Positions 3,812 through 51,469 of a stretch of 64,000 nt of DNA are shown here, one piece after another. A program made the position numbers and the translations under genes. Under the pieces are notes generated by a model. It searched no databases, had not been told where the DNA came from, and saw only the letters and a program-made list of their open reading frames with translations. The DNA comes from Narcine bancroftii (taxonomy: Eukaryota). How positions within the stretch are numbered: the first letter of the stretch is position 1; every line of letters starts with the position of its first letter. The stretch spans positions 231,694,001 through 231,758,000 of the forward strand of contig NC_091473.1 in the NCBI RefSeq assembly GCF_036971445.1, given 5' to 3'.

Positions 3812-4900
3812 CTTCTCACATAATGGATCAACATCTGCATAAAAATGAGATAATTTGAGTATGGGCATATGTATTCTATGTACCACCTTAAATTGTAATA
3901 AACAATGCCTTGCACAAAATGAAGAATCATTAATCAAACAAAGAGCAGAGTATCAATCTTCATCTGGAAATGTTATATTGAGATCACATTCCCATTCATT
4001 CTTAATAGCCAATAAATTATTATTAATACATGATATTAATCCACCATGGAAAACTCTAAATTTAAAAAAAGTGCATTAAAAGTATTTGAATTTGCGATTC
4101 GAGAAAAATCATGTGCAAGATGTTTGAAGCATCATTGATCTTATATGTTTTGGGAGTGTCCCAATTCAGGAAGATTTTGAGAAAATATTTTTCAATCTTT
4201 ATCAACGATTTTTAAGATCAAAATAGAACCATGCCATTTAATTGCCTTGTTTGGTTTTTTATCATGAACCGGATATGCTTGTGTCTGCATCTCAAGAGAA
4301 ATTTTGAGCTTTTAGCACGTTGATAGCCAGATGAACAATTTAAATGAAATGGATACATGATGTAATGTCATATATAAGCTTGGAGAAAATCAAATGCAAC
4401 ATTATAGATAGAAAGTTTCAATTTCAAAAGATGTGGGGCGCCCATTCATAGAATACTCATGATTGGTCATAATTTGGATGCTCTGGTGATTCTTTGCCTA
4501 ATTTCTGAATATACATTCAATACATATCTTTATGTTTTTTTTCTATAATGAGAAAATAATGGGGGGGGGCAGATTAGATTTAGTTTTAGATTTTCGGGTT
4601 TTTTTTATTCCGCTTTTTTTTTTAAGATTAATCGATTATATACAGGTTTAATTATGGTTTACCTGGATCATATTATCACATCAGACAGATATTACTCTGT
4701 GTTATGACCAAGGCTTGATATAATGTACCTCAATTGGTTTCTATCCAGATTCATTTTTAACAATGTTAAATCAACAAATATGGATGGATTTGAATTACAT
4801 TTATATTAATTTGTGACATGTATATGATATAACATGCCTCTTTGCTATATTAGTAGACTTCTTATGTCGGATTAATATGTTAAGCTCAATAAAAATATTT
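3812..4900 (+). mobile_element. L1-clade LINE 3' end with inverted 5' segment (3812-4112 minus; 4113-4900 plus)
   Basis: Minus part encodes INDSSFCARHCLLQFKVVHRIH..DVDPLCEK. Plus part resumes with CKMFEASLI(H)MFWECP..IALFG (one frameshift) and ends at AATAAA about 4888. Confidence 0.8.
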
Positions 4901-6726
4901 TAAATGAAGATCAAGTATACAATTCAGGTGTTTCCCCATATCTCCTATAAGTAGGAATGTTTCCAGATGCTTAGAATGAACATCCACCACCTTTCCCCAG
5001 CCCCATTGAAGCATTCCTGACAGTGGTAAATTATTGCTGCCAGTTTGCAGGGGTGTAATTTCAGGGATTTTCAAACCTGCGACTATAGCCACTCCCCCAA
5101 TGCTTCTCCTTGATCCAGAAAGAAAGCATGAACAGGACACCTGGAATCCAGCAGTTATATAATTGGTCTGGGCAACAAATATATATATATATATATTCCT
5201 TAAGTTCTGAATGTAGTGTTATTTGTGGTCAATGTAAGTTGATCACTCTGGAGATTGTGATCATTTCTAATGAGTGAAAACACGAGGCTCTTTAAACCAA
5301 AAATAAATACAATATGCAAGTCTAGTCTTGCTTTTTTATTCTTGGATCATTTTACAATTAGAAATGATTATAGTTAAAACTTATATATTAAGCCATAAGC
5401 CCAATTGGTTAGCTATGGCAGCTAGATGAAACAAAGCTAATTATTTTGCCACAGTGCCACCTGCAGCCTTAATATAAATGGAAGTCTCATTGCCCGTACA
5501 TTATAAATATTTGTCTTTATTTTGAAAAAGCTAAATTAATCAATATGGTCAAAAACAACAGAACAATTATACTCAACTGACACCTTTTCCATTGGCAAAA
5601 TGAAAGACATCATGAGATTACAGCTTGAGGAGGTGGAGATAGCGGGAGGGACATGGAAGGCTTGACCCTTTTTTTAAAGGAAATGTCATGTTTTCTGTAT
5701 AAGCTGAAGAAGAATGGATAAAATATCTAACTTATCAGCAAAAGCAGATTTCTTAAGAAACAAATTGAAAATGGCATGGAGTGAGATGTTACACAATAAT
5801 GCTCGTTCGGGAACAAAATCATCACACAGCTCTCTTAATAGTCTAATAGTAAATCAGACCAGATTTTTCTCTGCAACAACAATGAAGTAGTATGTGGCAT
5901 TCAGATGAAAAAAGCTCATATGTAAAAATGTTATAGCAATCATTAATTTCCTCTTCAGTAGTTCACATAAAAACAAATATTGCAATTGTCTTATTGCTAA
6001 ACATTCATTGTGAAGTTTTGAATTAAAAACATATTTTTATCTAAATGAAGAAATAATATTTAGGGATAATCTTTCCATTGCCTTGTGCTTAGAACTGTAA
6101 ATTTATTGTATTTTAATAAATGTTCACCTGCTTTCAATCTTATTGCTCGGAAGTCTTTATGTCCATAACTTCATATTTTGCATTTTATGAATGATTAATG
6201 GAGGTTGCCTGCTTTCCCTATACAAACACATCTTATCCACCTCCCCCATCACTTCCAAACACCGTCACAACCTTGTGCATCCCAAAGATCCGATGGGCCT
6301 TCAAAAGCTGAAGCATTACTTTGAGGACGAGCAAAGGAGTAATCCTTAGTGTCTTGCCCAGTGATTATCCTGAATTAATATTCTTTAAAAAAATGGTGAG
6401 AGCCTGCTGTGGCTTTCATAACGTGCTTCCTGAATTATAAAATTGACCAGTTGAAAAGTATTTTGTTAGCTCAGGGATGCTTTGGATTATACTGGGATCA
6501 TGAAGGGAGCTAAATAATTGCAAGTCCCTAGTTAGCCAGTATAGGGGACCAATGATCAAAATTCTAATTTACACTCAAACACTAAGTAAGTTGATTAGTC
6601 AGATGGAAATAAAATCCACAATTTTCTGACTTGCAACAACAAAGACGAAGTGCCATTACTAATGGTCTGAACAGCTATCTGGAACTTCACTTCCCCATGA
6701 CAATGATGCAGGAATATGTTTCTTAC

Positions 6727-6780
6727 CTCAGTCCCCACAAAGCAAAAGAAAACAATTTTCTATGAACTTTGACTGCTCAA
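6727..6780 (-). other. Candidate 54-nt non-coding exon
   Basis: Minus strand has acceptor ctcgttctcctctgcaatttag and donor GAG|gtaaga in unique DNA. All three frames contain a stop. Confidence 0.3.
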
Positions 6781-7728
6781 CTAAATTGCAGAGGAGAACG
6801 AGATTTTCACTTTATAGAGGAAATCTACTTTCAAAGTAAATGAAGTTACTGCAAAAGTATATAAAGTTATAGTACTTGCTGGAACTGTATGTGTATAAAT
6901 ATTACCCTGTAATTCAAAGCTAGCTAATATTTAATAACCATTTGGAAAAATGAAATACATTTTAAAAATTATATTTCATACTTTTATTGAAGGGAATGAA
7001 GAAACAATCATTCAATGAACTCAAACTATATCAGTTCAATGTGCTGTTTATCACTTGAATAATAAAAATGTATTCAGACTGTCATCCTATAATTTTGAAA
7101 GAGCAAAAAATTGCAATCCATTCTTTCACTGAAACTGCTTCTCTTTCCACAGTTGGTGTCAGCTGCTGAATGTTTCCAACATTTCCTCTTCTTAATCTGT
7201 CTTTTCACTCCCTTAGTTGACACACATATGAAAATATCATTGCAGTCGAGCATTCAGTAGTTCCATGAAGTATTAATGATTAACACACTAAAAAAAGATT
7301 CACATCGTGGTCTTGCAATCAATTTGCAATTTGTATTTCCTGAAGTATTGATTGTCATCAGAGTGAAACTTCTACATCGTGGTCTCGACAATCAATTTAC
7401 AATTTGTATTTCCACCAGAGCGATTAATGCACAATGTTTTGATTTGGTAGGGGAAAATCCAGCAAAGGATGTTTAGATCAAAGCAGGAATTAAGGCATTC
7501 AGAGATTATCTTTAGAAAAGTCTTTGAGCATAGCAGGTTTGCTTTGTCTTGATTTGATATTATCTATCAATCCATATGGAGACATGGGAAAATTTGACAT
7601 CAGAAAGTGGGTATATTGCTCAAATATTCCATGTCAGCCCATTTTGTAGGAATCCAGCAAGTCCTTGAAACCCTGCAAATTTATCTCCTCTGTAACTATG
7701 CAATTTCCCTATGTCATTTTAGTTCCCT

Positions 7729-7884
7729 TCAATGATGACCACCCTCGAAGGCAAGAGTTCCAAGTTAATGGTTCTCTTCATCAATGATGACCACCCTCGA
7801 AGGCAAGAGTTCCAAGTTAATGGTTCTCTTCGTCAATGATGACCACCCTCGAAGGCAAGAGTTCCAAGTTAATGGTTCTCTTCA
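7729..7884. repeat. Tandem repeat, 3 x 52 bp
   Basis: Unit tcaatgatgaccaccctcgaaggcaagagttccaagttaatggttctcttc(a/g) starts at 7729, 7781 and 7833. Confidence 0.97.
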
Positions 7885-7998
7885 TGTACAAATGATCTCC
7901 TTTCCGCTCCCACACCTATTTCCCAAGACTTTAAATCTGCTCTAGTCTTTGTGCAATCACTGAAATGGTCCACTTTCTTTTTCTAATTTACCTTAGCC

Positions 7999-8365
7999 CA
8001 GCGGTTCTCGACTTTTTTCTTTCCACTCACAGACCAATTTAAGTATTCACAGGTGCTCTGTGATTAGTAAGGGATTGCTTAAGGAAATATGTGAGTGGAC
8101 AAGAAAAGTTTGAAAACCACTGTTTTAATCATACCTAACTGACTCGTTATGTACACAGTTTCATAACTTCAAAGGAAATGGGCCAATTACAATTTTTCTC
8201 AAGCAAAATATTTCATTAACAATTGGGTCTAGAGCAGTGATTCTCAACCTTCCCTTCCTACTCATTTACCGCATTAATCAATCCCTTACTAATCACAAAG
8301 AACCGATGGCATAGGGATTACTTAAAGAGGTATGTGAGTGGAAAGAAAAAGGTTGAGAACCACTG
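7999..8365. mobile_element. hAT (Charlie-like) compound MITE
   Basis: TIRs cagcggttctc..gagaaccactg. Homologous, in opposite orientation, to 23546-23920. TSD degraded. Confidence 0.85.
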
Positions 8366-9559
8366 TCTTTGGCTGTCACAATCTTGTAAGCTTCTACCAA
8401 ATTTGCTCTTTATCTTCTTTGCTCCATTGGGAATTGTGTCAGCTCCTCTATCCTAGCCCTGCAGATCTCATCCCTGAAACAAAATTTCCTCTACATCACC
8501 TCAAGAACTTTCACTTCCATCCTAAAGTTTGGTTACCAGAACTGAACATAATGCTTTAGTTGCGCTGTAGCATCATGTGTTATTCTGTGTTATTTTGCTG
8601 TTTTTTTTAATATTCAATAATTTTTAGAATTTATGAAAAGGTCACATATGTTACATGAACTTTTATTTGAAGATATTCTATCACCTTCAAAGCCATGCAG
8701 ATAAACCACATTTTCTAATACCATCACGTGCTTTAGAGCAGTGCCATTAAATTAATAATTGTCTTTCTCCATCCCTTTTGACAAAATGCATCATCTTGTG
8801 CTTCTCTCTGTTCAGTTCCATCTGCCTTTTCCACATAGGACCACAAAATCCACCTGGAATGAACAATGAATTGATATAGGGCATTGATGAATAGTTTTGT
8901 CATGAAACATTCACTGACCATTTATTCCCATCGATGCTGTCTGACCTGTTGAGTGCCACCAGCATTTTTTTTATTTCCTCAAGGTTCTAACATCTAGCTT
9001 TGATGCTTCTCTTCTGAATAATGCATTTTCCAACTTCAGGTTACACAAACTCTCTTGTTTATTTCTCTCTCTTGATCCACCCAGATCATCTCGCTCACTC
9101 CTTTCCAACTCCAACTTTTAGCCAGTTTTTTTCCTCTCCCCCAGCTAATTTTATCTGCCCATCATCCACACCCAACACAAAGAGTCTCCTCTCTCCTTAT
9201 GGAATAGTTCCATCTGTCCTTCATTCCTTATCTAGTTACATTATCAGATTTCAGAAACTGCGGCCCTTGGTTGTCTCCACTTGTCCCCTCTCCTTCCCCC
9301 ATCTGACTTCATCTTCCCACTATCATCTCCCTCCACCATTGGTTCCACCATTTGACTGCCAGCTCCTTCCTCACTCCTTCCACTCACCTCTTTTTACTAG
9401 CTATCTTCCCTCCAAACTCTTGGTTCTGGTTCTGCCTAATTCGCTGAGTTCTTCTACCAGTTTGGTTTTAGCTCCAGGTTCCATTATCTGCAATTTTTTG
9501 TATCTCCATTTACTCCAACTCACTGCTTTCTGTTTTTATGCCAGGTTTTAAAAAAAAAT

Positions 9560-10500
9560 CTCAGCTGATCCTGACCTTCCTTCTCCACAACCTTCTCTTT
9601 TGTAAACCAGCCTCATGTGTGGTATTTTATGAAATTCATTATAATAATGAATTCATTACAGTTACTTTTCTGTTACATTCAGGTTCATCAGATGCAATCT
9701 CAATTTGCCAAATTCAGACGGGCTCTCCTCAATTCACTCAAATCCCTGTTATGTTCTTGTCACTTGCTTGTGGAATCTAAAACCGTAAATAAACCAAATA
9801 ACCTGAATTAACTTGGAATCATTTTACACCCATTTTGTGAGCAATGTCTTAATCCTCTGACTCCTTCCCCATGAAGAGGGAAGATTGGAACATTATGGCA
9901 ATTCATTTTCTTTAATACTGGAATGTAACAGAAATCTGCAAGTGGGCCCAGCCATTGTTGCATAGGATGCTAATCAATCCTTAGTCCAACCATTTATTTA
10001 ACATCTACTCATATTTTGCCAGCACCATCTTCTTTCATCAGGCATTAATGCATCCTATTCATTAAATCTTCTAATTTTGCCTTGTGCATCCAAACATGTA
10101 TCACCTTTTTTTGCCCTTCATTGGTTTAAACTCATGACTTTTATTACTCTTACTACCTATTTATTATTTGTGGATGGAGATTTTTAGGTTTCCCTTGCTA
10201 TTAGATATGTAAATTATCATTTCATTCTCATTCTCTCTGTTTAACTGGACAAATGTTCTTTTTTTCATTTTCTCTCACGTTACCATAATTCTCTCGGTTG
10301 TTGTCTGAAGGCCTTATCTGACGCGCATCATACCCCTATGAATTTTGTTTCACCACATTTTCTATCTCCTGCATCACCCAAGAAAAGATGAGGATGGTTT
10401 CCTAACTTTTCCCCTTGTGAAATGCAACTCACCTACACTTGAATCATCTCCTTAACTGATTACCCATTACTCTCTTACAATTTATGCCATCAATCTTGGG
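9560..10500 (-). mobile_element. Highly degraded CR1-like LINE
   Basis: Pyrimidine-rich decayed sequence resembling the reverse complement of CR1 ORF2 (compare 41.3-42.1 kb). No intact ORF. Confidence 0.4.
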
Positions 10501-10579
10501 TTCCATTTTACACCGGCAAACAAATGCTGCACATCAATAATAAAATGAGACATTATGAAATATGGTCATCACTAAGTAA

Positions 10580-10940
10580 GTAAAAACACAATGCTGGAGA
10601 AACTCAGCTGGTGAAACAGTGCAGCAAAGATACATAACTGACATTTCGGGCTTGAGTCCTTCATCAAGGTAAGGATAAAATGGGGCTGGTACCCAAATAA
10701 AATGGTGGGGGGAAGGGCAGGGGAGGGAGGTGCACAGTCCTAAAGGCAGGAGGAAATAGATGGACAAGGGAGAGAGGGCACACCGCAAGCAGGGAGAGGT
10801 GGGGGGGAATGGCTCTGTGAATGGAGAGAGAAGAGGGTGGAGAGCTGGAGGAAAGAAGGGAAAGGGAAGGGAGGAAGAATGGAGACTTGGCTAGCAGAAA
10901 CCAGAGAAGTCGATGTGAATCCCATCTGGTTGAGAGCACC
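10580..10940 (-). mobile_element. Penelope-like element 3' fragment
   Basis: Minus frame ends QPDGIHIDFSGFC (GIY-YIG C-terminus), followed by the family tail 'cagctgagtttctccagcattgtgtttt'. Confidence 0.75.
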
Positions 10941-11692
10941 TAAATAATTGTGACAATTGCCTCCTTGTTTCAAACAAGGTTCTGAAATAAGGCAAAATAA
11001 GCAATGAACTGTGTGATTTAAGGTGCAACTTCACCCAAGACACAACACTTGGGCTGGGACTTAATTTTAATATATTGGTTTGGATATGAAAGATTGAATT
11101 GTCTTTAAAATACATTTTTTTTTTAATACCAATCTCTAACTTCAAAATTACCTTCACAAAATTGAGTCCACCACATGTCAGATCTTGCAATCTATAGTAA
11201 TCACAATGGGGTCTTCGGTATCCACGAAGTTAAATCTCCACCCTTTTGTTAATTCAAGCATTTACAGTAGCATGTAACATGAATTAGATACCCAATAAAT
11301 GCATTTTTCCATCCAGTAATGCATCAAATTCAATATGAATTTACTCCCTCTTGCTTCAGTGTTACTCCAAGAGATTGAGTTAAAGGTTTAACAAACTCAT
11401 TCAGCTTCAAGCATTACAATCATGTGAGACCAATCTTTCACCTAAGTGGCCTGAGCTAGATTATCGTGTGAAGGATAGTCTGAAATTCCAATGTGCTAAT
11501 CTATTTTGACTTCAATTTCTACCTTGATATTTCAAACACCCTTATCTAAATAATTCTTACTATGTGTTTGGAAGACATTTATTTTCCATAAACTGGAATA
11601 ATCTACCAATGCTCTGTTGCGGAATAGAATACTTATCAGAAAAAAATAGAATACTGAAAAGATTAACAAAATTAACCATAATCATTTCAGAT

Positions 11693-11932: not shown

Positions 11933-12244
11933 GCTGATGTCAAAACTTTTGTTGATTTGCCTGATGGTCGAAATAAGTAGAATGCTGTTTACAGTTTTCA
12001 TACTAGAAATAGCACAAAATTCAACAACATGCACAATGGTGTGAGGATGTTAAGCAAACAAAGAGATGCCGGAGCGACTCAGTGGTCAGGCAGGATCCAT
12101 GGAGGAAAAGGGACAGTCAGTGTTTTGGGATTGGACCCTCTTCAGTTACAAAGTTGGCGGTGGAGATAGGAAGCATGAAAAGGAGAGAGGAAGTGCTAAG
12201 GAGGAGTCCAGAGGTAATCACATGCAGGACAAATGAAGATGGCT

Positions 12245-12900
12245 ACGTGCCAGATATTTGTCATCGCAATTTAAACTAGTAACCGAGCTTACTTTTCCAA
12301 AGTTCAACTGGCTAAATTTTATTCTAATTTCTCATCAAAATGCGACAGATGTAAGACTGAAGAAGGTACATTATTTCATATGTTTTGGTAATGTTCCTTG
12401 GTTTCCAATTATTGGGAAAATATCTTCCATGCCTTGTCTTTGGTTCTTAATATTAATTTGGCTTCTAATCCTTTTTTCCCCTAATTAAAATAAGTAAGTC
12501 AGCTGATTTAAATTTGTCTGGGCTACCCTCTTATTCCCAGAAGAGCTATACTTATGAGATGGAAGGATGCTGTCCCTCCTCCACATTCTCAATGGTTATC
12601 CGATATGATGGCATGCTTGACTCTGGAAAAAATTAGATGCTCTACTAATGTAATGAACCTTAATTTTCTAAATTTATGGGGTCCTTTCCTTAATTATTTT
12701 CAGAATTTATAAGATTATTGGATTCCATTTTACGGCTTAATTGTGCTTTCTTTTATGTATTAATGGAACATATATGTTTGATCATAACTTCATAAGGGAA
12801 GGGTTAGATTATTAGAATATTTTTGTTTTATATACATTGGTTTTTTTCTCTTTCCTAAGTTGTCTAGAGCTATTTGTAAATATATGTTTACTTTGCTTGA
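12245..12900 (+). mobile_element. L1-clade LINE 3' fragment, not inverted
   Basis: Translates to SQFKLV..KVQLAKFYSNFSSKCDRCKTEEGTLFHMFW*C..YWENIF, which contains the CCHC zinc knuckle. Confidence 0.75.
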
Positions 12901-12954
12901 TATATATTCTTGTTAGTCCCTATGTATGAGCATATACATATACATACATACATA

Positions 12955-13900: not shown

Positions 13901-13904
13901 GGTG

Positions 13905-17465: not shown

Positions 17466-17859
17466 GCATTAATATATTAATTTAAGAGTCTCTTACTGAC
17501 TTTTACAGTTAATCATCTATATTATGCATCTGGGTTTTTGATGATTTGCAGAATTTTTTAGATCTGATTTTGTTTTCACTGAATGGGATTTGCAAACTGT
17601 TTGTGATCAGAGGTACTTCTTTGACTTACATTTGAAAGATCGATCTCTTAAAGCCTATAACATTTAACCTTGCAGGACATTACAAGTACAGAAAACTACT
17701 TTCAATCTGATGGTCTATGGTTGTAGGTGGAGAGTTCAAATAAACTATTATTAATGGTTAATCTAGCTATTGATCTGAGAAACTGCCACTAATGCAACTG
17801 TACCTTAGAAAGACATCACCATCCAACCCTATGACGCTGAAGACAAATTTTAGAGCTAA
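17466..17859 (+). repeat. Left arm of 390-bp inverted repeat
   Basis: Near-exact reverse complement of 18782-19173. Confidence 0.97.
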
Positions 17860-18781: not shown

Positions 18782-19173
18782 TTAGCTCTAAAATTTGTCT
18801 TCAGCATCATAGGGTTGGATGGTGATGTCTTTCTAAGGTACAGTTGCATTAGTGGCAGTTTCTCAGATCAATAGCTAGATTAACTATTAATAATAGTTTA
18901 TTTGAACTCTCCACCTACATGCATAGACCATCAGATTGAAAGTAGTTTTCTGTACTTGTTTTCTGTATTTGTTAAATGTTATAGGCTTTAAGAGATCGAT
19001 CTTTCAAATGTAAGTCAAAGAAGTACCTCTGATCACAAACAATTTGCAAATCCCATTCAGTGAAAACAAAATCAGATCTAAAAAATTCTGCAAATCATCA
19101 AAAACCCAGATGCATAGTATAGATGATTAACTGTAAAAGTCAGTAAGAAACTCTTAAATTAATATATTATTGC
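18782..19173 (-). repeat. Right arm of 390-bp inverted repeat
   Basis: Near-exact reverse complement of 17466-17859, with a few substitutions and one ~15-nt replaced patch. Confidence 0.97.
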
Positions 19174-21571: not shown

Positions 21572-23545
21572 CCTACTGAGTTCTTCCAGCACTTTATTGT
21601 GCACGGCAGTATGTGTTCTTTTCAGTAATCTGTCTAAGCTTCACTCCTAACAATTTTAAAAAATGAAAAAAGCCCATGATTGGAATAAGAAACTTTGATG
21701 CAAGCTGTTTATTGAACATGAAAAAAATATATTGGTGATCTTTATTTCAGCCAGAATGATCAAGATCTAAGAAAAGCCTCTTCTGAGCAACAATTCACTG
21801 TTGAATGTTCTGCCCATGACAAGAAAATAAAATTTATGATGTTTATGGGTTGAGAGCAAGAGTTGCAGAATTGATTTCAGTCAGGGAGCACTTGTTTATA
21901 GAGTACTGAGTTGACTCCAACTGTGGTTCACTGCAACTCCTGATGATGTCCCTATAAAGAATGTTTCATGCATTCATTCAAGCTTTGAAACAACAGGTAG
22001 GAAAGTTCTTTCTAAAAGTTTCACAAGAACTTCAGATCGATTTAAAAATGTCTCCACCAAATTCAAGAGAGAATCCCCCAGTTGTTACAAATAGGCTTCT
22101 TATCACATTGCTGTGTCAAATACTTGCTGTGGCGCACACAAACAAAGTGAGAATCTTTTCTCTTGGGGTCCTAAACAATACTTTACTCTGGAGTTATGTC
22201 AGGTTTATAAATGTTGTGAAAAACATTAGTTTTACCATTGGTAATCCTGATCAATTTAGCACTACTCCGAAACAGAGAGTGCTTAATAGGGACACCCAGG
22301 TTAAAATTATTGGTACATCCTTAATCGTTATCAGTAATAATGTTAATTTAATTTACAAGAAAGAAAAACAATGAAGAACAAAGCCTCAAGACAGAAAAAA
22401 GTTGAGACACAAGAGATTGCACCTGCTGGATTCTGGTGCAAACTATTGTAAGGAACTCAGCTTGTTGAGCAACTTATATAGGGAGAGGGAATGAACTGAT
22501 GACATTTCAGGTTGGGACCTGCATCAGACAAAAATGATTATTTGCTACAAGTTATCTTGCAGTGCTGTACATCTTCAGTAAGCTTGGAACTTTGAGTTGA
22601 TATACATTCTATTTTCTGACACTCTCAAAAATATGTGCAAAGTTCAGAATTCTAATATAATTGGGAGCTGAATTAATTTAATGTGATTGCTGTTTTCAGA
22701 TATTTTTTTTTCTACCAACAGTTGTAGGCTTAACATTGGATTTTCAGTGCAGGCCAATGTAAAGATGCTGCACCAAAGGAATAGTAAATTAAACTTAAAG
22801 GCATTAAAATTAAAGGAATAAAGATAAACAAATGATAAATATGAAGAGAGGTCATTCTAATTAATTGTGGGGTCATGGTGGAGCCAGGGAGAAAAAAAAA
22901 ATTAAAAATATGATTTATTCAATCTCATAATATCAGTTATCCTGCCAAGGCCAACTACAATTCTAAAACAAGCAAACAAAAGATAAATCATTCATTAATC
23001 TGTGCACTCATTAAGATTCAATTTGGACCACAACAATGAGCAACTGTGTTTGGTTTAGATAATCTATTATTTAATGTAGAAATTACATTTTCTGAATTAT
23101 ACTATTGTAAAAAAAATAATATACGGGGGAGATATAGTGCGCACGATATAAATAAACAAAGGGAAGGGAATGAATCAGACATAATGACTCAAGCCTGTAA
23201 TAAATTGAGGCAAATATTCCAAGAGTGCATCTGTTTATTGGAGTTCATTGAAGACAAGTATGGCCAATAACTAGCTTTCAGTTCCTTATTGGTGACTCTT
23301 TTGAGGGCATTAGAAATGTACAGCTGTGGCCCATTGCACTTCAGTGTCATTTGGTTCTTAACTTATGACACCAGGATATTTACTTATGAAATGTGCAAAT
23401 AATGAGTTTAATTAGTTAAAAGTTGTGTTCCAATAATCAGCAATTAATAAATGACCAAATTTACACATTTAAAAGAGAACATTCTTCCAGGTGTAATAAA
23501 GATGAAAGTTAAAAGTTCCTTTAATATTTTAACATGGATTTAAGG

Positions 23546-23920
23546 CAGTAGTTCTCAACCTTTTTCTTTCCACTCACGTACCACTTTAAGTAATCCCTAT
23601 TCCATTGGTGCTCTGTGATTAGTAAGGGATTGCTTAAGGTGGTATGCGAGTGGGAAGGGAAGGTTGAGAACCACTGCTCTAGACTCAATTGTTACTCAAA
23701 TATTTTACTTGAGAAAAATTGTCATTGGCCCATTTCCTTTGGAGTTATGAAACCGTGCACATAACGAGTCAATTAGGTCCAATTAAAACAGTGGTTTTCA
23801 AAGCTTTTTCTTTCCACCCACATATCACCTTAAGAAATTCCTTACTAATCACAGAGCACCTGTGGCATAGGGAATACTTACAGTGGTATGTGAGTGAAAG
23901 AAAAAGGCTGAGGACCACTG
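23546..23920. mobile_element. hAT (Charlie-like) compound MITE
   Basis: TIRs cagtagttctcaacct / aggctgaggaccactg with a perfect 8-bp TSD atttaagg. Confidence 0.93.
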
Positions 23921-25647
23921 ATTTAAGGGAATGTCATTGTTCAACAAATGTGCTATAATATTGAAAATTTATTTCATATTGGATGTATAAAAGCAGGTTT
24001 AAGTGTGAGTGACCATGTCCGTAAGTAAATTAAAAATCAAATGCAAGTTATTTTAGAAGTGAATTGTAAGGTGAATCGTAAATTTCAAGTGAATTCAGAG
24101 ATGTGGCCAGTAAACATACTGAAGGTCTTCAATGAAAGTCATGGACAGGATTAAAAACAGTGGAAAATACCCCAAGCCCAACCAATTTAAAAAGAATCTA
24201 AGAAACATATTTAATTACTATTAAAGAAGTGCTCCAATGTGTTGGACTAATTTATGTAAGACAAAAAAAAAATCAAAACAATACCTTAAATAATCTGCTG
24301 GACTGCTTTGTTTTGACTCGCCCATAACTGGTAAAGTTTAACATTGTAAGATTGGCCATATTAGATTGCAAATAAAAGTTTTTATCTAATTATTGATAAA
24401 AACTCATTGAAATCTTGAATGAAATATCAGTGAGTCCTCTTATATTTTGTTCAGCTGTATAATTGATGACTACGTGCAGCACCCTGCAGTTGACTATAAC
24501 TCCAGTGGGATTATATGAAGTAGACATGAACATATTGACAGCAAACAAAACTGCCAGTAGATTTCCAGGCTCCATCCAGTGAACTGACCTCTCATTTGAG
24601 GTCTACTGTGCAGAAAGCTTGATAATTGTCGTATTAAAATCAGCTTCACAGTGTCATCCATCATTCTCTTAAAATAGTCCTTTCATCTGTGCTGTTGTAA
24701 TCAGTAGTGATGGCAGCATTAGTCCCCTAGATGGCATTGTCTTTATTATCAGAGAGTGGGTAAAGGATGACATACTTGAAACAGCCATGTTCATTTTGAG
24801 TTGTATTGTGATGTAAATGTTCCTTTCTTGAGAATTGTAATCGACTGCTCCATACAATTTTAATTACAAATTCATACTTTGCTGCTTCTTTAGAACATAT
24901 TGTCACATAAATCATTATTAAAATGCATTATTTACATAATCGTATTTTTGAATGTCCTTAAAAAATTATACCAACATCATAGCAAACTTTTAGATTAGTT
25001 AAATAGCATAAGTGACAATTCACATTGACCATCACTTCCAATACATAAAAACATTTTCTTTTCACCACGATTAAAGTCTTATAGTCAACTCAACTTGACG
25101 AGTTATAATCCAGCTCTCACTAGTCTATGGTTGGGTGGAGTTCTTCCGTTTCATTAATGTATGATGTGACATGTCCTGGGACAGTTTTCAGAATCAGACA
25201 TTATTAAAAAAAGAACAAACGAAGAGTAGAAAAAAATAACAGCAAGCCTTTGAAATTTTATATTTATCATTATTCTTAAATTCATAGATAACAACAAATA
25301 CCGATAAATATCATGCATCTCGTTAAACTATGGACTGTAAAATTCCATTGAGTGAACCCATCCCCACACCTTACATTTTGATCAGCTGGGGACAAACTAC
25401 TCTAAATCAGAGCTGTTGATATAACCAGGGAACTCATGATAATATGATTGGTATAAGATACTTTGATGCAAGCTGTTTATTGAATATCAATTCCAGTAAC
25501 ATGCATTTCTATAGCTATTTTGGAAAGGCTCACAGAATGGTAAATATATAGACAACAGTAAAGTTAGGAAGAGTCTACAGAGTAAGTCTCAGGAAGTCAG
25601 GGGAAGGATGATGAGTTAACATGGAACATAGAACAGAACTGCACATA

Positions 25648-25848
25648 ATGGAGAGAGAATTTTCATTCTAATTTCTTTTAAAAGTGTTCACTTGCCAAAT
25701 TCTACAAAAACATTTTAAACCCCAATTCGATTATATTTTAGTAAAAGGAGTAGCTTGTCAGATATAATATTAAGATGGTATGCTTCATCTAGTTTATGTT
25801 CTATTAACTTTTTTTCTCAATAGAGTAATTATCTTAATTAAAGAAATG
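25648..25848 (+). repeat. 200-bp direct copy of 27957-28158
   Basis: Near-identical sequence, flanked by the duplicated actgcacat(a/g)atg. Confidence 0.95.
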
Positions 25849-28171
25849 TACTGCACATGATGTCCAAATCAAACTAAAAAATCTGCTGCTTAGCACCTAT
25901 CCCAATTATATTCATTTGTCCATCTAGAAGCCTCTTAAACATTACTATTGTGTAAAAATGAAGTTTTTGTAAACAAATGGTGGCAATTTTGCATTGTTAA
26001 TAGAGGGAGGATGTGAATGACAGGATGTTTGAAATAAAGACATTGATGGTGGTGAATAAGGCGAAATAGGTGTAGGTGGAAGTTGGAGATAAATTTGTTT
26101 TTTTTTTAACTTGAGGCCCATATCGCAGATGTGTTGCAAATGAACAGTGAGAGGTTTCAAGGAAAAAAAACAAAAATGCAAAAATTCCATTTCCATTTTT
26201 TTTTAAATTGAAAGATTGCTGAAGAACAAAGGAGAGGTACAAAATTCCAGAACTGGTTGTATGCAGAGATCATAAAACTAAAAGGAACTAAAAGGAATTG
26301 CAGAAATTGGAAGGGCTGAAGCAACAGATGGATTGGGAACACAGGGTCAGGAATTTTAAAAAAATCAAGACTTTTGTCAGAATGAAAACCATCAGGGAGT
26401 AGCAGACGTTATAGGTATAGTGAAGAGAGCAGCATGTATGACCAAAGTATCAATTATTTAGTACAAATTAACATAAGATGACGTTATCTGGCAGTATCAT
26501 AATATTGGTACCAAAAAGATAAGGTGACACCAAACAATGTGTATGGTTGCATGTGGCACAGAGATCCATGTCTGAGTGAAAAGATGCCAATACCGTTTTC
26601 CTTATGCAAGTCTACCAGCAGGCATAATTTCAATGATGTTCAAAAGTTGATTGCCAGGAGCTCATTAACTTATTGCCAGTGGCATCAATGAGATTTGTTA
26701 CTTTTACAAGGATTTGGTCTGATGATATAAATGGATAGATTACATATTCTATATCAGTCTGCAGAAACAGATACTGTGCTGGTAAATTAGTCCACTGTAA
26801 ACTCCAGCCCTGAATTATGCTATCCAAAAAGATTACATGAACAAATAAAGTATCTCTGGCTTTCCACAGTAGAACTTCAAGTGGGTGACTTTGAACCAAC
26901 AGTTCTTTTTCCAGTAATGCCATATTTCATTTAAAAAAAACCACAAAAAAACTATTTTTAAATTATAACTTAACCATCATTTTAAATGTAGGAAACTTGT
27001 TTTTCTTTAATTCACTAACACTGCTATAGAAGCTTTTTGCTTTGGTCTTTCCCTACAACATCAAAGGAGATCATTCAGCCCATTAAGGGTAATATCATCA
27101 GTCCATTTCCACTTAATTTTGTAACCTGCTCTCCCTCTCTCACATGTCCATTAACATCCTCCTAGTTCTCTTACTTTTCATTTACCTCAGGGGATACCTG
27201 CAGCAGCCCAATTATTATTGAAGCTCCCTGGAAGGACTGCAACTCTTATTTTAACTCCAAAAAAAACTGGTTTGGATTGGCATCTTACTAATAATTCAAG
27301 TATGCTGCCTAATCATTTGTACATGGATTCACCAAACCCATTGTGCTAATACTGTGGATGGGTACCTCCTATCAATTCCTAAATCACCTAGCCCATCAGC
27401 TTTACACTGCTGCTAATATTTATACAATTATATTTCAAATTGGAACATCAGCTAAGACTGATGTCCAATCACAGTAAAAGCTTGTGTCAGATTTGAAAGA
27501 CTCAAGGTGGGGCTCATCAATGGAAATATACCAAGGATAAATGAGTGGAGTGTTGTGTTCATCATGCTTGAAGAAAATATGCCTGCCCTTGTCCAATATG
27601 GAGCTACTGCAATGTAAACATTTTGTTTTACTCTAGTTAGCCTCTCCTTGGCATTAATAACAACAATGCAAACATTTTGGGATGAAGCAACTTATTTCTT
27701 CTCCGGAGTCATGAGGGAAACAAACGCATGATGCAATAATTCATGGTTCACTGTATGCATCCAAAAAGGGAGCAAAAATCTGTTTACAAGGAGATGCTTC
27801 TGTTCAAAATATAGAATGTGCAAAGTTAAGTTCCACTCAGATTTATTATTGTTCGTCTGGAAATGCAGTTTTTAAAAATCTTACTAATGAAGAGGAAATA
27901 TTAAAGAGACAATATATAACAATAATTATTATTAATGCAAAGGCTGACTGGACATCATGGAGAGAGAATTTTCATTCTAATTTCTTTTAAAAGTGTTCAC
28001 TTGCCAAATTCTACAAAAACATTTTAAACCCTAATTCGATTATATCTTAGTAAAAGGAATAGCTTGTCAGATATAATATTAAGGTGGTATGCTTCATCTA
28101 GTTTATGTTCTATTAACTTTTTCTTCTCAATAGAGTAATTATCTTAATTAAAGAAATGAAGAAACAATTAC

Positions 28172-32207: not shown

Positions 32208-32253
<46 letters not shown>

Positions 32254-43232: not shown

Positions 43233-43800
43233 ATGATAAATAGAAGTGATAACTTCCAAACATTTGCAAACTACCTTAGATTCACACATCACAAGGTCAC
43301 ATTTCACAAGACTCAAACACATGGCGGAATAGAGAGATTCATGCAAATACTGATGAAAATTATCTACACTCCTCGTGCCAAGGAAAGATCACAGAAGCGA
43401 AAATTTGAGTTTTTAGGGAACAAGAAAGCAATGCCAGAGGCAATGACAGGAAAATTACAAATTGCCCTTGCTTTTTTAAATGACTTATTTTTAAAGCCTG
43501 TGAGACAGATAATCAATAGTTTTGCACGTTTGACAAAGCCAAGAAAAACCATCAGGAAAGTTAAAGCAGACGAATACAGGAAATGTATATCTAGGTCATT
43601 ACACCCAGAGGATACAGTCCTTCTGAAGACATATGGGCAAGCAAGCAAGCAAGCAACTCCATGTGACACACGGCCATTTGAAGTTACTGCCTTAAGTTTT
43701 TCCTTGATTGCAGCAATGGACGGCTCACGAATTATCCTAGAGAATGCAACATTCTTCAAGGCACTTAAACTATCATTCTCCAGTGTTAATCAAAATAGAT
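43233..43800 (+). mobile_element. Gypsy LTR-retrotransposon integrase remnant
   Basis: SDN..FANYLRFTHHKVT..GGIERFMQ..TGK..PEDTVLLK..PFEVT..NATFFK follows the pattern of a degraded integrase core and C-terminus. Confidence 0.75.
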
Positions 43801-43955
43801 AATCTCATGATTAAAGAAGGAATTAAGCAACGTCATGGGTTCAGCAATAAACCCTTCTACCTCAAAATCATCCTGATTGAGCTATCATGCGATCTGGAAT
43901 CTCTTCTGTGCATAAGAAACTATCAACATGATATAAAGATTGAGAGATTTAGAAA

Positions 43956-44280
43956 TGTAGTAACCTATAAGTCAACATCCATGCAATGACTATGCAATTA
44001 TGCTAAGACATTGACCTCATTGTTTTATGTTAATGATCTGTTTCATAATTAGTACCCAAGGAATGTCCATTAAAAAAATATATGGTAAAATGTAAGCTCG
44101 GTATAGCTATGACTGAACTGTCTTGGAATGTGACTTGTGAATAAACCACTTGCGTTTCAAATCTCACTCTATCAAGTCATGTGTGCCTTGTCTCTGTTCT
44201 TTTGACTGTGTATGTTAACTATTGGCCCTTCAAACTATACTCATAGCTTCCCCAGTACACAAAAATAGTGTTCTTTAACA
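43956..44280 (+). mobile_element. Probable 3' LTR of the Gypsy remnant
   Basis: TGTAG...TAACA termini after a purine-rich tract, with AATAAA about 44140. Confidence 0.4.
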
Positions 44281-44732
44281 TGGGGAGGAACACATTGATA
44301 TTATTATGATAAAAACACACAGGAGGAACTTTTGCCAATCGAGCAGCGTCCATAGGAGGTAAAGATATATTACCAATGTTTGGACCCTGAGCCCTTCTTC
44401 AATGTGCAAGCACAAAACAGACAGGCATCTGAATAATGACTGGGGAGGGAAAGGGAAAAGAATGGTAGGGTCCTATGGATGCTGTGAGACCGGCTGAGCT
44501 GCTCCAGCATTTCTGTGTGCTTTTACTACAATTACAGGGTCTGCAGACTTCTGTGTTTCACTCCATATTACTATATTATGCTCGTGCATTTCCTTTCTCA
44601 GAATACTGTGTGTGCATGACCGCTTTCATATATGCATTCTTCACACCACTTTCAGAGAACTAAACATTTGTACAACTTAGCCCTCCCGGGTGTGGTACTA
44701 AGAGCCCTACTTCATGCAGCAATAAGTTACCT

Positions 44733-44853
44733 CTTCTTCTTTGGCTTGGCTTCGCAGACGAAGATTTATGGAGGGGGTAAAAAGTCCACGTCAGCTGCAG
44801 GCTCGTTTGTGGCTGACAAGTCCGATGCGGGACAGGCAGACACGGTTGCAGCG
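44733..44853 (-). mobile_element. RTE LINE 3' end (about 120 bp)
   Basis: Same 3' end as 846-1258. TSD gttacct. Confidence 0.9.
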
Positions 44854-45986
44854 GTTACCTATTTACCTATTTAATCATGAAAAGCAGTTGCAGTTTATAT
44901 CGATTTATATACAATCAATAACATCATATAACACACTAAATTCTAACATACAATCTAATAATTTAATTATCAGAGTCTGTCAAGCCAACCAAAAATCAGG
45001 AAAACAGTTTTTATGGAATCAGTATTCAGCCTATTTAGTGTAATAAACTGCATTTCAGATGGCAATAGCTATGTGACCCAAGGCCATTATATCTGCAGTC
45101 TTCAATCTGAGTCATTCCTGTCTCTCTGGGAAATGTGGCTTTGTAGCTTTGAAGATTTCAAATCACAGATGGTGTAAGGTTTTATTGGTCACAGTTTACA
45201 CATGCCAATTTATATTCAACAATTTATTTGTCATTTGTCAGAAGATAAATCTCAATAACATCACTGAACATTCCTTTACCTTTTTAAAATAATAAATAGT
45301 TTTATACCAGCAATAAATGTGCAGTGAATTATAGTTTCCATGATATTTTAATGGCAATTTACTGCACTTAAAATCTGGATCATACAGCAAAAAAAAACAC
45401 AGGACCTCTTATAGAATACTTTAAAATTACCTACAGAAACATTTCAATTGACAGAGCAAAAATTTCTTCTTTCTCTGCAACGACAATTCAAATGGGAATA
45501 AACTTCATGAGTAGCAATTATGTAAACGCTTGGATATATTTGCTCTGGACAAAGAAATCGATCCCTTATGTACAGAACAATAGTAAATAGAATTACAGAA
45601 ACCAGGCTCAATAATTAATAAATTAGCATTTTTATTTACCTGTTTACCCATGAATAGGGAATTAAATTTATACAGTCAGAATCAGAATTGTCATGAACAT
45701 GTCATGAAATAAATATTTCTTTGAAGAAAGAATATTTTATTCAGCACTTTAAAAAACTTATTATTGGTTTATTCATTCTTTGTGGAAATTGATTCCACAA
45801 TGAGCATTGCCAATGCATGCATTGAAATGTAATCTTGATGCCAATACATTAAAATCCACATATTCTTGTAACAGCAACGCGAGCAATTTGAGTTTTAGAG
45901 ACATAAAGTGGCTCTTCTGCCCAACTCATCCATAATGATTGGGAGCAAACTGGAGTTAGTACTACTTGCTTGCATTTGGCCCAAAC

Positions 45987-46632
45987 CAGTGGTTCTTTCC
46001 ACTCACATCTTCTTCTTTTTCTTTCTTCTTTGGCTTGGCTTCGCGGACGAAGATTTATGGAGGGGGTAAAAAGTCCACGTCAGCTGCAGACTCGTTTGTG
46101 GCTGACAAGTCCGATGCGGGACAGGCAGACACGGTTGCAGCGGTTGCAGGGGAAAATTGGTGGGTTGGGGTTGGGTGTTGGGTTTTTCCTCCTTTGCCTT
46201 TTGTCAGTGAGGTGGGCTCTGCGGTCTTCTTCAAAGGAGGCTGCTGCCCGCCAAACTGTGAGGCGCCAAGATGCACGGTTGGAGGCGAGATCAGCCCACT
46301 GGCGGTGGTCAATTTTTAGTAATCCCTATGCCATCGGTGCTCTGTGATTAGTAAGGGGTTGCTTAAGTTGAGACGTGGGTGGGAAGGGGAGGTTGAGAAT
46401 CATCACTCTAGACCCAACTGTTACTGAAATATTTGGCTTGAGTAAAATTGTTATTGGCCCATTTCCTCTGGAGTTATGAAACCATGCACATAACGAGTCA
46501 ATGAGGTATTCAAGCTTTGTCTTTCCACCCACATACCACCTTAAGCAATCCCTTACTAATCACAGAGTACCTATGGCATAGGGAATACTTAAAGTGGTAT
46601 GTGAGTGAGAAGAAAAAGATTGAGAACCACTG
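45987..46632. mobile_element. hAT compound MITE interrupted by an RTE
   Basis: TIRs cagtggttct / gagaaccactg and the same internal spacer as 23546-23920. Confidence 0.85.
46008..46312 (-). mobile_element. RTE LINE 3' end nested in MITE
   Basis: (GAA)n tail and the CNRCNRVCLSRIGLVSH region. No TSD seen. Confidence 0.92.
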
Positions 46633-46639
46633 CTCTAAA

Positions 46640-47250
46640 CCTTTCCTTTCCATGTGCCTCTTTAACCGTCGTCTCAACATTGTAATTGTACCTATCTCTA
46701 CCACTTCGTCTGGCAGCTCATTTCATATATCCACCATCTTCTATGTGAAACACTTGCACCTCAGGTGACTTTTAAATTTTTTGCTTATTACCTTAAACCT
46801 ATACTCTCTAGTTTTAGATCTCTCCAGCCTGGGAACAAGACTGATGACCCAATCTCTCTCTGCCCTCATTATTTTATGATCTTTATAAGGTCACCATTTA
46901 GCCTCATTCACTCGAAGCAAAATAATCCCAGCCTTTTCAGTCCCTCCATATAACTCAGAGCTCCAGTTCCTCTGAATCTTTTCTGCATCTTCTCTAACTT
47001 AATCACATCGTTCATCGAGTATATCAAGCAAAGCTGCACGTCATACTTCGAGTGCACCTTCACCGATCTTCTGTATGGCTGTCATGTGACATCCCTGATC
47101 TTGTACTAAATGCCACAACCACAACAAATGCCTTCATTATCACCCTGTCAACATGTGTCACCACTTCCTGGGAACTCTATTCTTGTACATCAATATCTCT
47201 CTGCTCTAGAGCACTCTCCAGCATCCAAACATTTATTGTGCAAGCCCTAT
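46640..47250 (-). mobile_element. Degraded CR1 LINE
   Basis: Minus strand encodes VEIGTITMLRRRLKRHM, a CR1 C-terminus. Confidence 0.7.
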
Positions 47251-47604
47251 CATATTTCCCATTGCATCTATTTAGGTGATGAAGCTTTTGAGACACCTTA
47301 ACAAGTGTCATGGTGTGACGGGTGTCAAAGAGTGCAGTGTTTGACGGAAAGCTATTACAGCACCAGTGACCCGTGTTCAAATCCAGTGGCATCTGGAAGG
47401 AGTTGCACCTCCTCCCCATGATTGCATGGATTTTCTCTGGGTGCTCTGCTTTCCTTCCATATTCTATGAACATATAGGGTAGTAAATTAATTTGTCACTT
47501 CAGTGTATTTGGGCAGCATGGGCGAGAACCCCTCATTTCTGTGTACCACTTTGAAAATTAAGCTTTCCTTGTATGGTGAATCTATGTCAAATTCTCCTTT
47601 GAGT

Positions 47605-48383
47605 TGCTCCCGTTTCCTTCTTTCAGCGAAAACATCTGTCCGATACTGTTGGGTCCCATTTATTTAACTTTTGGGGCGTGACTTATAGCCTGTGTAACCA
47701 ATTATATTGTATCATGTGTAACCTCGTGTTTGTTGTATATGGGCATGTGAGAAAGTGGAAAAGTTTTGGGAAGATCTAAATCAGGTATTAAATAAAATCA
47801 CAAAAATCAACATACCAAAAAATCCAGAGGTCTTTCTTCTAAGTAATATAAGAATTAGGCCTCAAACTGGATGAAGCACAAAAAAGATTTATTATGATAG
47901 CCTTAGCTGTAGCAAGAAAAAGTATAATGTCAACCTGGAAATCAGAAGAGAGCCTGAGAGTACAGCAGTGGCACATAGAAATGAATAAATGTATTCCATT
48001 GGAAAAAAAAATAACATATAATTTAAAAAATAATGTGACATTATTTGAACAAATTTGGGAACTGTACATGGAACACAACAGAGAGGGCCTACCACGGACC
48101 TCCACCCCCTAAAATGACAGAATGAGAAGACGAAATGAACTGACCCAGTGTGTAAAAGTAGACGACACAATTAACCATATAACCATATAACCATTTATTG
48201 TTTATTTTCATTGTGTGATGACATTGTTTAATGGGTTTATTGTATATGTTGAACGTTTAATGGGTAGGGAGGGGGTTGGGAAGGAGGGAGAGAAGGGAGG
48301 GGGGAAAAGGGGAGAAAATGACACTGTGTTTGTGGGCATTTTGGTTAATATGGTTCATAGTGTTAAAAATAAAAAAAATTAAA
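47605..48383 (+). mobile_element. L1-clade LINE 3' end with inverted 5' segment (47605 to about 47736 minus; about 47737-48383 plus)
   Basis: Minus part NTRLHMIQYNWLHRL*VTPQKLNKWDPTVSDRCFR*KKETG. Plus part IWACEKVEKFWEDL..MIALAVARKSIMSTWK..PLEK, then an A-rich tail. 16-bp TSD aaattctc(c/a)tttgagt. Confidence 0.92.
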
Positions 48384-48633
48384 AAATTCTCATTTGAGTG
48401 CTGTTCATAAGAGATTTTGCTATTTTAAGACACTATATAAACGCAAGTTGTTGTTGGAATGCCAACCTTGGGTGCAATATTAAATGGAGTCCTCATCTGA
48501 ATTCTCAGGTGAATAGAAATGGCCATATGGTGTCAACTTCCAATAATCTTTCATTCTCAGTACTTTGGTGATACTTTTGAGCTTGAGGATCATAATACTC
48601 TTATTCCACTTTTTTTTGTGCATTACATAGCAA

Positions 48634-49960
48634 TGAGCAGTCTGATTTCTCGCCTTTGTTTTTGTACAGGGTGATGATGATGGCATCACGAAGGTCCGGA
48701 GGCAGCTTTCCTTGGTCCCAGCAGAGCTTGAAAAACTCATGCAGTTTGGCATGCAGAGTTTTGCCGCCAGCCTTCCAGACCTCTGGGGGGATTCCATCCA
48801 TACCTGCTGCTTTGCCACTTTTCAGTTGTTCAATCACCTTATATGTCTCTTCCCGGGTGAGGACCTCATCCAGCTCTAGACTCAAGGGCTATTGAGGGAG
48901 CTGGAGCAGGGTGGATTCTTGGACTGAGCGGTTGGCACTGAAAAGAGATTGGAAGTGTTCTGACCATCGATTGAGGATGGAGATCTTGTCGCCGAGGAGG
49001 ACTTTGCCGTCTGAGCTGCGCAGCGGGCTTTGGACTTGGGGTGAGGGCCGTACACAGCCTTTAGTGTCTCATAAAAACCCCTGAAGTCGCCAATGTCGGC
49101 GCTAAGCTGGGTTCGTTTGGCGAGGCTAGTCCACCACTCATTTTGGATCTCCCGGAGTTTGCGCTGAAGATGGCTGCATGCGAGATGGAAGGCTCGTTTT
49201 TTCTCTGGCCAGGAAGGCTTTGCAAGGTGAGCCTGGTGGGCAGATCGCTTCTTTGCCAGCAGCTCCTGGATTTCCTGGTTGTTTTCGTCAAACCAGTCCT
49301 TGTTTTTCCTGGAGGAGAAGCCCAATACCTCTTCAGTGGATTGCAGTATGGCCATTTTCAGCTGATCCCAGAGGGTTTCAGGAGACGTGTCCGTGAGGCA
49401 GTTTGCATCCTCAAGCTTTGCTTGGAAGTTTCCTCTCACTTCATCTGACTGCAAGTTTCCAACATTGAACCTCTTTCTAGGGGCTCCACTGCTGTTGAAC
49501 TTTGGCTTGAAGTGAAGGTTGTGCTTGCAGCGAACAAGCCGGTGGTCAGTGTGGCATTCCGCGCTGGGCATGACCCTGGTGTGGAGCACATCTCGTTTGT
49601 CTCTTCCTCGCACCAGAACGTAGTCCAGGAGGCGCCAGTGTTTGGATCAGGGATGCATCCAGGTAGTCTTCAGGCTGTCCCTCTGCTGAAAAAGGGTGTT
49701 TGCAATGACAAGCCGCTGTTCTGCGCAGTGCTCCAACAGGAAGCGCCCGTTGTCATTGCACTTGCCGACACCATGCTTGCCAAGGATTCCTGGACAGGTT
49801 TCTGAGTCTTTGCCGACGCAAGCATTGAAGTCACCAAGGATGACAACCTTGATGGCTGTAGGGGTGTGTTGGATGAGGTTGCGCAGATCAGTGTAGAACT
49901 TGTTCTTTTCTGCTGGTTCCGCCTGAAGGGTTGGAGCATAGACACTGAAGAGATTGATGC
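48634..49960 (-). mobile_element. RTE LINE inverted segment (APE endonuclease to pre-RT)
   Basis: Encodes SVYAPT, ILGDFNA, TDHRLV and GMDGIPPEVWK..KGEKSDCS. Frameshifted. Confidence 0.95.
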
Positions 49961-49961
49961 A

Positions 49962-51469
49962 ACTAATACCTAGTGTCACCGGAAATGTCCTCCCAGACAG
50001 TGTGGCTTTCGCACAAACAGAGGAACTACTGACATGGTCTTTGCCCTCAGACAGCTCCAACAAAAGTACAGAGAACAAAACAAAGGACTCTACATCACCT
50101 TTGTTGACCTCACCAAAGCCTTCGCTGCTGTGAGCAGGAAAGGGCTTTGGTAAATACTAGAGCGCCTTGGATGCCCCCCCAAGTTCCTCAACATGGTTAT
50201 CCAACTGCACGAAAACCAACAAGGTCAGGTCAGATACAGCAATGAGCTTTCAGAACCCTTCTCCATTGACAACAGGGTGAAGCAAGGCTGTGTCCTCGCA
50301 CCAACCCTCTTTACTATCTTCTTCAGCGTGATGCTGAAACAAGCCATGAAAGACCTCAACAATGAAGACGCTGTTTACATCTGGTACCGCACGGATGGCA
50401 GTCTCTTCAAGCTCACACCAAGACACAAGAGCAACTTGTCCGTGAACTACTCTTTGCAGACGATGTCGCTTTAGTTGCCCATTCAGAGCCAGCTCTTCAG
50501 TGCATGACGTCCTGTTTTGCGGAAACTGCCAAAATGTTTGGCCTGGACGTCAGCCTGAAGAAAACTGAGGTCCTCCATCAGCCAGCTCCCCACCATGACC
50601 ACCAGCCACCCCCCCCCCCCCCCCACCACATTTCAATCGGGCACACTGAACTCAAAACGGTCAACCTTTTTACCTACCTTGGCTGCACCATTTCATCTGA
50701 TGCAAAGATCGACAACAAGATAGACAACAGACTCGCCAAGGCAAATAGCGCCTTTGGAAGACTACACAAAAGAGTCTGGAAAAATAACCACCTGAAGAAA
50801 CACACAAAGATCAGTGTGTACAGAGCCGTTGTCATAACCATGCTCCTGTTCAGCTCCGAATCATGGGTCCTCTACCAGCGTCACCTACGGCTCCTAGAAT
50901 GCTTCCTTCAGCTCTGTCTCTGCTCCATCCTCAACATTAATTGGAATGACTTCATCACCAACATTGAAGTACTCGAGCTGGCAGAGTCCGCAAGCATCAA
51001 ATCCACGCTGCTGAAGACCCAACTGCACTGGGTGGGTCACGTCTCCAGAATGGAGGACCATCGCCTTCCCAAGATCGTGTTCTATGGCGTGCTTTTCACT
51101 GGCCACTGAGACAGAGGTGCACCAAAGAAGAGGTACAAGGACTGCTTAAAGAAATATCCTGGTGCCTGCCACATTGACCACTGCCAGTTGGCTGATATCG
51201 CCTGCAACCGTGCATCTTGGCGCCTCACAGTTCGGCGGGCAGCAACCTCCTTTGAAGAAGACCACAGAGCCCGCCTCACTGACAAAAGACAAAGGAGGAA
51301 AAACCCAACACCCAACCTCAACCCACCAATTTTCCCCTGCAGCCGCTGCAACCGTGTCTGCCTGTCCCGCATCGGACTTGTCAGCCACAAACGAGCCTGC
51401 AGCTGACGTGGACTTTTACCCCCTCCATAAATCTTCGTCTGCGAAGCCAAGCCAAAGAAAGAAAAAAAA
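49962..51469 (+). mobile_element. RTE LINE direct segment (RT and C-terminus)
   Basis: Encodes QCGFR..FVDLTKAF, VKQGCVLAPTLF, LFADD, FTYLG and RIGLVSHKRACS, then a GAAA tail. Disrupted by stops and frameshifts. Confidence 0.95.

Follow-up and report, generated by a model that had tools for sequence, protein, structure and literature searches.

Three long interspersed elements (LINEs) in a 64,000-nucleotide (nt) stretch of the Narcine bancroftii genome are 5′-inverted insertions, likely generated by twin priming, and inversions of this kind affect about 9-11% of the sampled copies of the L1-B and RTE families. The stretch, referred to below as the window, spans positions 231694001-231758000 of contig NC_091473.1 (C11) within a 3.33-Gb assembly, and its LINE fragments are L1-, RTE-, CR1- and Rex-like. 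The inversions were verified by comparing the window copies with uninverted genomic copies of their own family. The preliminary description had assigned the same inversion geometry to all three insertions, and this was confirmed: each consists of a reversed 5′ piece and a forward 3′ piece that carries the tail. The features are listed in window coordinates (ORF, open reading frame; RT, reverse transcriptase; UTR, untranslated region; TSD, target-site duplication); the TSD copies come from TSD comparison, the last row from the window LINE survey and all others from reference matches.

3812..4114, minus strand: L1-A inverted 5′ piece, ORF2 end up to the first Cys-x-x of the CCHC zinc knuckle
4113..4904, plus strand: L1-A forward part, second Cys codon through ORF2 end and 3′ UTR, 792 nt
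47589..47604, plus strand: L1-B TSD, 5′ copy, 16 nt, preceded by TC as in most L1-B targets
47603..47738, minus strand: L1-B inverted 5′ piece, reference L127 positions 5123-5258
47737..48386, plus strand: L1-B forward part, ORF2 end, 3′ UTR and A-rich tail, reference positions 5269-5912 (646 nt)
48384..48399, plus strand: L1-B TSD, 3′ copy, one mismatch
48634..49960, minus strand: RTE-type LINE inverted 5′ piece, endonuclease end, linker and RT start, reference L133 positions 770-2107
49962..51469, plus strand: forward part of the RTE-type LINE, spanning RT to the A-rich tail and beginning at reference L133 position 2173
12165..12929, plus strand: older L1 fragment of a third family with intact knuckle codons, an internal counter-example

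In all three copies the inverted and forward pieces are contiguous on the reference and a single tail is present. The L1-A join is flush (offset 0) and falls immediately before the second Cys codon of the knuckle, 10 nt including the knuckle His codon are missing at the L1-B inversion point, and 65 nt are missing in the RTE copy. Both junctions of the L1-B insertion overlap by 2 nt. One TSD encloses the entire insertion in the window L1-B copy and in most inverted copies, with clear duplications in 7 of the 11 other L1-B inversions (10-18 nt) and in 4 of the 5 RTE inversions from random blocks (11-12 nt). Junction offsets in the sampled RTE inversions range from -25 to +56 nt, or to +65 nt at most when the window copy is included, apart from one long-copy case of 970 nt; among the resolved other L1-B cases they are -2 to +22 nt in 7 of 10 and 104-523 nt in the remaining 3.

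This anatomy, read alongside the human model, makes twin priming the likely origin. A first nick would prime at the RNA tail (target-primed reverse transcription), a second nick would release an overhang of 10-19 nt that primes within the same RNA, and the two cDNAs would be joined head to head, probably by host end-joining as the last step. On such a scheme, long-stagger cutters (L1, RTE) should be able to invert, and elements with little stagger should do so rarely.

The references are single natural copies, L127 for L1-B (full length, 5914 nt, 17-nt TSD) and L133 for RTE (3661 nt), with partial copies for L1-A, CR1 and Rex. L1-B shows the L1 layout, with ORF1, an ORF2 encoding endonuclease, RT and CCHC knuckle, an A-rich tail and a TSD of about 15 nt. 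The zf-RVT Pfam match to L1 lies under the Pfam cut-off, and in the related L1 copy L275 both Exo_endo_phos and RVT_1 exceed it. L1-A is assigned to L1 by its C-terminal match only, all copies examined being partial; it is an old family whose copies are 70-85% identical to one another. RTE copies L133-L136 align across 3.6-3.7 kb and display the layout of that clade, in which a single long reading frame encoding endonuclease and RT and a short repeat tail make up an element of about 3.7 kb. The window RTE pieces match Exo_endo_phos_2 and RVT_1, both under the cut-off, and RVT_1 look-alikes exist. The RTE, CR1 and Rex labels are provisional assignments from motifs, in part backed by Pfam.

Several observations weigh against the reading as twin-primed LINE insertions. 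No convincing TSD was seen around the window L1-A insertion (3812-4904), none was found around the RTE insertion (48634-51469), and a search for empty sites of these two among the fetched loci yielded nothing useful. L025, L194, one random L1-B copy, L068 and L071 likewise have no TSD at the threshold used. Microhomology at the second-primer junction amounts to 0-2 nt in 8 of 8 L1-B cases, as judged against a single reference copy and without a chance control. The inversion samples are small (11 L1-B, 7 RTE, 3 L1-A), and the presumed clade names derive from element layout, motifs and Pfam matches rather than from a tree containing named references.

Inversion frequency and the contrast between clades

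Of 32 random 50-kb blocks drawn, 24 were obtained, corresponding to 1.2 Mb. In these, 5 of 58 RTE copies with a 3′ end (Wilson interval 4-19%) and 2 of 18 L1-B copies (3-33%) are inverted. Among loci retrieved with 3′-part queries the inverted copies are 8 of 87 for L1-B, 2 of 29 for RTE and 3 of 29 for L1-A; since these loci extend only 1.5 kb upstream, the latter counts are lower bounds. Nested loci (L021, L168, L012) and loci that are complex or belong to another family (L008, L156, L106, L043) were excluded ahead of counting, and L111 was rejected as an inverted copy, its strand having been misassigned. The rate is thus not negligible genome-wide, and the earlier claim of frequent twin-priming-type inversion outside mammals, RTE included, is upheld. 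Within the window itself, 3 inversions among 9-10 L1/RTE 3′ ends give p = 0.04-0.06 at the sampled rate, and 3 inverted among the 4 copies longer than 500 nt give p of about 0.01, both values having been calculated after the fact on a window that a scan had selected.

CR1 and Rex-like elements behave differently, with 1 inversion candidate among 96 and 0-1 among 46 copies, respectively; a finer alignment test took in 69 and 54 overlapping CR1 calls and 35 Rex calls. Together they amount to 1-2 inversions in 142 copies versus 7 in 76 for RTE plus L1-B (Fisher p 0.002-0.03, depending on the length cut-off). Simulated flips were well recovered, by family 58-100% at 100 nt (21/36 at the lowest, 32/34 in another family) and 93-100% at 200 nt (25/27 or better). 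A TSD of at least 10 nt was detected in 17 of 56 RTE copies (5 of them 30-nt hits, some in tandem repeats), 2 of 18 L1-B, 0 of 74 CR1 and 1 of 45 Rex-like copies, the typical length being 10-13 nt for RTE and mostly 14-19 nt for L1-B. RTE and L1-B fit a long-overhang requirement by TSD length, and CR1 and Rex by the near absence of TSDs. The CR1 and Rex-like copies are also older (61-69% identity to their references versus 80-90%), and age in part explains their fewer TSDs and short inversions, so that the clade contrast is confounded.

The preliminary description had further proposed that a host repair or integration pathway underlies the inversions. The similar rates in two unrelated clades speak for a host contribution, as does the observation that human L1 inverted in human cells and not in chicken DT40 cells, from which it follows that host factors matter (PMC4245944; this and the other papers cited here are drawn on for the sections available). 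A pathway that alone sets the rate, all LINEs of this genome inverting alike and CR1/Rex seemingly spared through the age of their copies, is nevertheless unlikely: the scarcity of CR1 and Rex-like inversion argues against a purely host-driven cause, it persists although simulated flips are recovered, and the old L1-A family is nonetheless inverted in 3 of 29 copies. Element and host acting together, with host end-joining as the presumed last step, fit the data better than the host pathway alone. A broader statement is also possible, although we hold it with somewhat less than even confidence: twin priming may be a general rule for long-stagger LINEs rather than a peculiarity of L1 or of mammals, RTE and L1 inverting at about 10% in a non-mammalian vertebrate and CR1/Rex-like elements not, with the second primer engaging in both clades only after about 500-600 nt have been copied. 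If true, this delay would serve as a clock for second-strand cleavage that does not depend on the clade and could be read from the sequence of any genome.

Position of the inversion points and the knuckle codons

Relative to the first Cys codon, L1-A breaks at about +9 and L1-B at +32/+43; both breaks are within the CCHC knuckle codons and 23-34 nt apart in knuckle coordinates, in agreement with the separation of about 30 nt noted previously. The accompanying suggestion of an internal-priming hotspot in L1 RNA is not supported for L1-B: only 1 of the 11 other inversions falls in the knuckle, compared with 2 of 31 truncation points, the two distributions do not differ (Kolmogorov-Smirnov p = 0.69) and no peak appears at the knuckle. 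Four internally deleted copies, and every copy that extends past the end of its locus, are not among the 31 truncation points. Among second-primer points, 1 of 10 is in the knuckle. For L1-A, 1 of 3 unbiased inversions is at the knuckle (p 0.11-0.19); a weak local preference may exist there but is not shown.

The forward parts of the other L1-B inversions measure 498-1337 nt, 6 of 11 lying at 498-626 nt. In RTE, 6 of 7 sampled inversion points are located 611-807 nt from the 3′ end, and the zinc-finger motif of this element is near its 3′ end; a forward part shorter than 600 nt is found in 0 of 7 sampled inversions versus 35 of 80 uninverted copies (p = 0.038, with a threshold picked post hoc). 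In both clades, inversion points are concentrated at 500-850 nt upstream of the 3′ end, a zone that contains the knuckle, whose distance from the tail is about 630-690 nt in L1-B and 790 nt in L1-A. The two L1 breaks in knuckle codons are most likely a coincidence, arising because the knuckle, at 630-790 nt from the 3′ end, occupies the zone where truncations and inversions are densest.

A number of copies pull away from coincidence and toward a true hotspot, at least in L1-A, at which an RNA structure or a bound protein would stall the first RT or expose the site to the second primer. L053 is an independent, unbiased L1-A inversion (-3/+13) within about 12 nt of the window break (+9/+9); L337 is inverted at +5/+29, and L338 has a 3′ break at about +8, so that four L1-A breaks fall within about 30 nt. 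In L1-B, the window copy (5258/5269) and L194 (5266/5289), the single other inversion in knuckle codons, both break there, and an RTE copy interrupts the knuckle codons of one L1-A element (L046:511-1446). The force of this series is reduced by how it was obtained, L337 having been found by a query that holds the junction and is therefore biased, and L338 showing no forward part within the 2 kb seen. L1-A and L1-B share only about 54% DNA identity and therefore no evident common sequence, the older L1 at 12165-12929 spans the knuckle unbroken, and the shares of knuckle points among L1-B inversions and unbiased L1-A cases are as given above. Queries carrying the window junctions returned 0/39, 1/39 and 0/39 further copies of the same geometry, a weak test because the ranking favors intact copies. 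Taken together, a knuckle hotspot appears quite improbable, and a true hotspot superimposed on the long-stagger rule is a slim prospect. The same queries were used to consider an inverted master copy spreading behind the window copies; this was rejected, as they returned no L1-B copy and one L1-A copy, L337, with different flanks and different breakpoints.

Antisense self-insertion of L1-B as a mimic of inversion

L021 and L168 have a common junction in which an antisense L1-B 5′ end is joined to reference position 4694, and a query carrying this junction spans it at 18 of 40 places. The hosts are scattered on the tree: their distribution takes 11 changes, and none of the 200 bootstrap trees unites them in a single clade. 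In L168 and in 3 of 10 further far-end windows, host sequence stops at 4710 and is accompanied by a second tail; of the remaining windows, one shows a third L1 at this very site and six are uninformative; L332/L345 represents a doubly nested case. The scattered hosts, the far-end host sequence and the second tail rule out an inversion hotspot or a single chimeric master. These junctions are independent antisense L1-B insertions at a TC|AA site of the element's own ORF2 (reference L127 positions 4694-4710), represented by L012, L021, L168 and L323-L335.

TC precedes 16 of 24 L1-B TSDs, which identifies TC|AA as the family's own target. The exact junction pattern occurs at 43 places genome-wide versus 0 at one control TC|AA site; relative to a rough estimate of about 13 expected for a generic TC|AA site, the 4710 site is favored a few-fold over the motif, one control being thin. 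Contig C11 makes up 7.7% of the assembly and carries 13 of the 43 nested junctions, mostly at 174-237 Mb (binomial p about 1e-5). Nested insertion hotspots are known among human transposable elements, where position- and orientation-specific insertion into other elements, for example Alu into Alu, is similar (PMC2836564); here an autonomous L1 enters its own ORF2 in antisense and thereby imitates a 5′ inversion with a fixed junction. Such a self-insertion site can pass for an inversion hotspot.

The existence of these mimics raises the question of whether the window copies and their relatives are nested antisense insertions or later genomic inversions instead of twin-priming products. L012, L021 and L168 were initially scored as inverted or head-to-head, and the absence of a TSD from the window RTE and L1-A copies would be compatible with such an origin. 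The nested cases can be told apart by their second tail and by the host sequence found at their far end; the window copies have one tail and pieces that lie 0, 10 and 65 nt apart on the reference, and most inverted copies are bracketed by one TSD. This origin is consequently very improbable for the copies counted, and twin priming is retained as the likely source.

Relation to known systems and other repeats

The mechanism is a known one, and the novelty lies mainly in the clade and the host. Twin priming is named as the model for human L1 5′ inversion in PMC5668948, PMC2912911 and 10.1101/2021.12.20.472354, and the present copies resemble human L1 in the inverted 5′ piece and sense, tailed 3′ piece under one TSD, in the short deletions or duplications at the join, and in inversion points that are distributed like the truncation points and cluster toward the 3′ end. 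Truncation and inversion points were not significantly different in 330 human events (10.1101/2021.12.20.472354), and the human data in PMC5668948 likewise match the two. The rate of about 9-11% compares with 18.2% (298/1634) and 26% (330/1271) of polymorphic human L1 in the sections available, a comparison that is not like for like because the copies here are fixed, older and in some cases seen over 1.5 kb only. The systems also differ in that the host is a non-mammalian vertebrate and an RTE-type element inverts too, and in a possible 500-600-nt floor at the 3′ end, which was not met in the portions of the human-L1 literature examined; the available text of PMC5668948 describes a gap in human inversion points at the 5′ end and not in the final 590 nt of the 3′ end.

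From cell-culture assays of human L1, zebrafish ZfL2-1 and Nimb-2, PMC4245944 ties inversions to TSDs of 10-20 bp and argues that a long overhang is required, proposing that inversion needs a 10-20-nt overhang and depends on element and host; the clade contrast observed here agrees. In those assays nearly all inversions came from L1 in human cells, with a single Nimb-2 case in DT40, in contrast to the genomic copies of a non-L1 clade described here. The accessible parts of PMC12350158 and 10.1101/2024.08.27.596794 deal with human L1 only. Word searches of PMC13295347, PMC6007223, PMC11371274 and PMC5389967 gave no genomic 5′ inversion in RTE or fish L1. No report of such inversions was found in the literature searched, which covered few subscription papers and no supplements. 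A 2008 survey is said to have covered L1, L2, CR1 and RTE junctions and may already report them.

The timing and manner of second-strand cleavage in LINE integration are described as unknown in the available sections of 10.1101/2021.12.20.472354. One genome with several abundant LINE clades offers a natural experiment in which the inversion rate by clade can be set against TSD length and 3′-end distance, separating element from host control over thousands of events without bench work. In practical terms, repeat annotation of such genomes will break about one tenth of L1/RTE copies into two fragments.

Same-strand internal deletions were observed in the L1-B copies L015, L009, L013, L026, L145, L186 and L189. 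In L015 a single TSD encloses the first 176 nt fused to position 5291, an arrangement suggestive of template jumping while the element was being inserted. Tandem-repeat arrays take up most of two random blocks out of 24 (L221-L225 and L292-L294), and retrovirus-like or long-terminal-repeat-type reading frames are present in random blocks at L216, L257-L260, L271 and L276-L279.

Further repeats were noticed in the window. A 395-nt inverted repeat (17466-17859 and 18782-19173, 96% identity, about 920 nt apart) has no match in the fetched loci and is a candidate local inverted duplication or rare foldback element. A 212-nt direct repeat (25638-25848 and 27947-28158, 97% identity, 2.3 kb apart) also has no match there. 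An internally palindromic repeat of about 390 nt, resembling a miniature inverted-repeat transposable element, occurs at 7988-8369, 23542-23931, 46314-46640 and 56399-56644.

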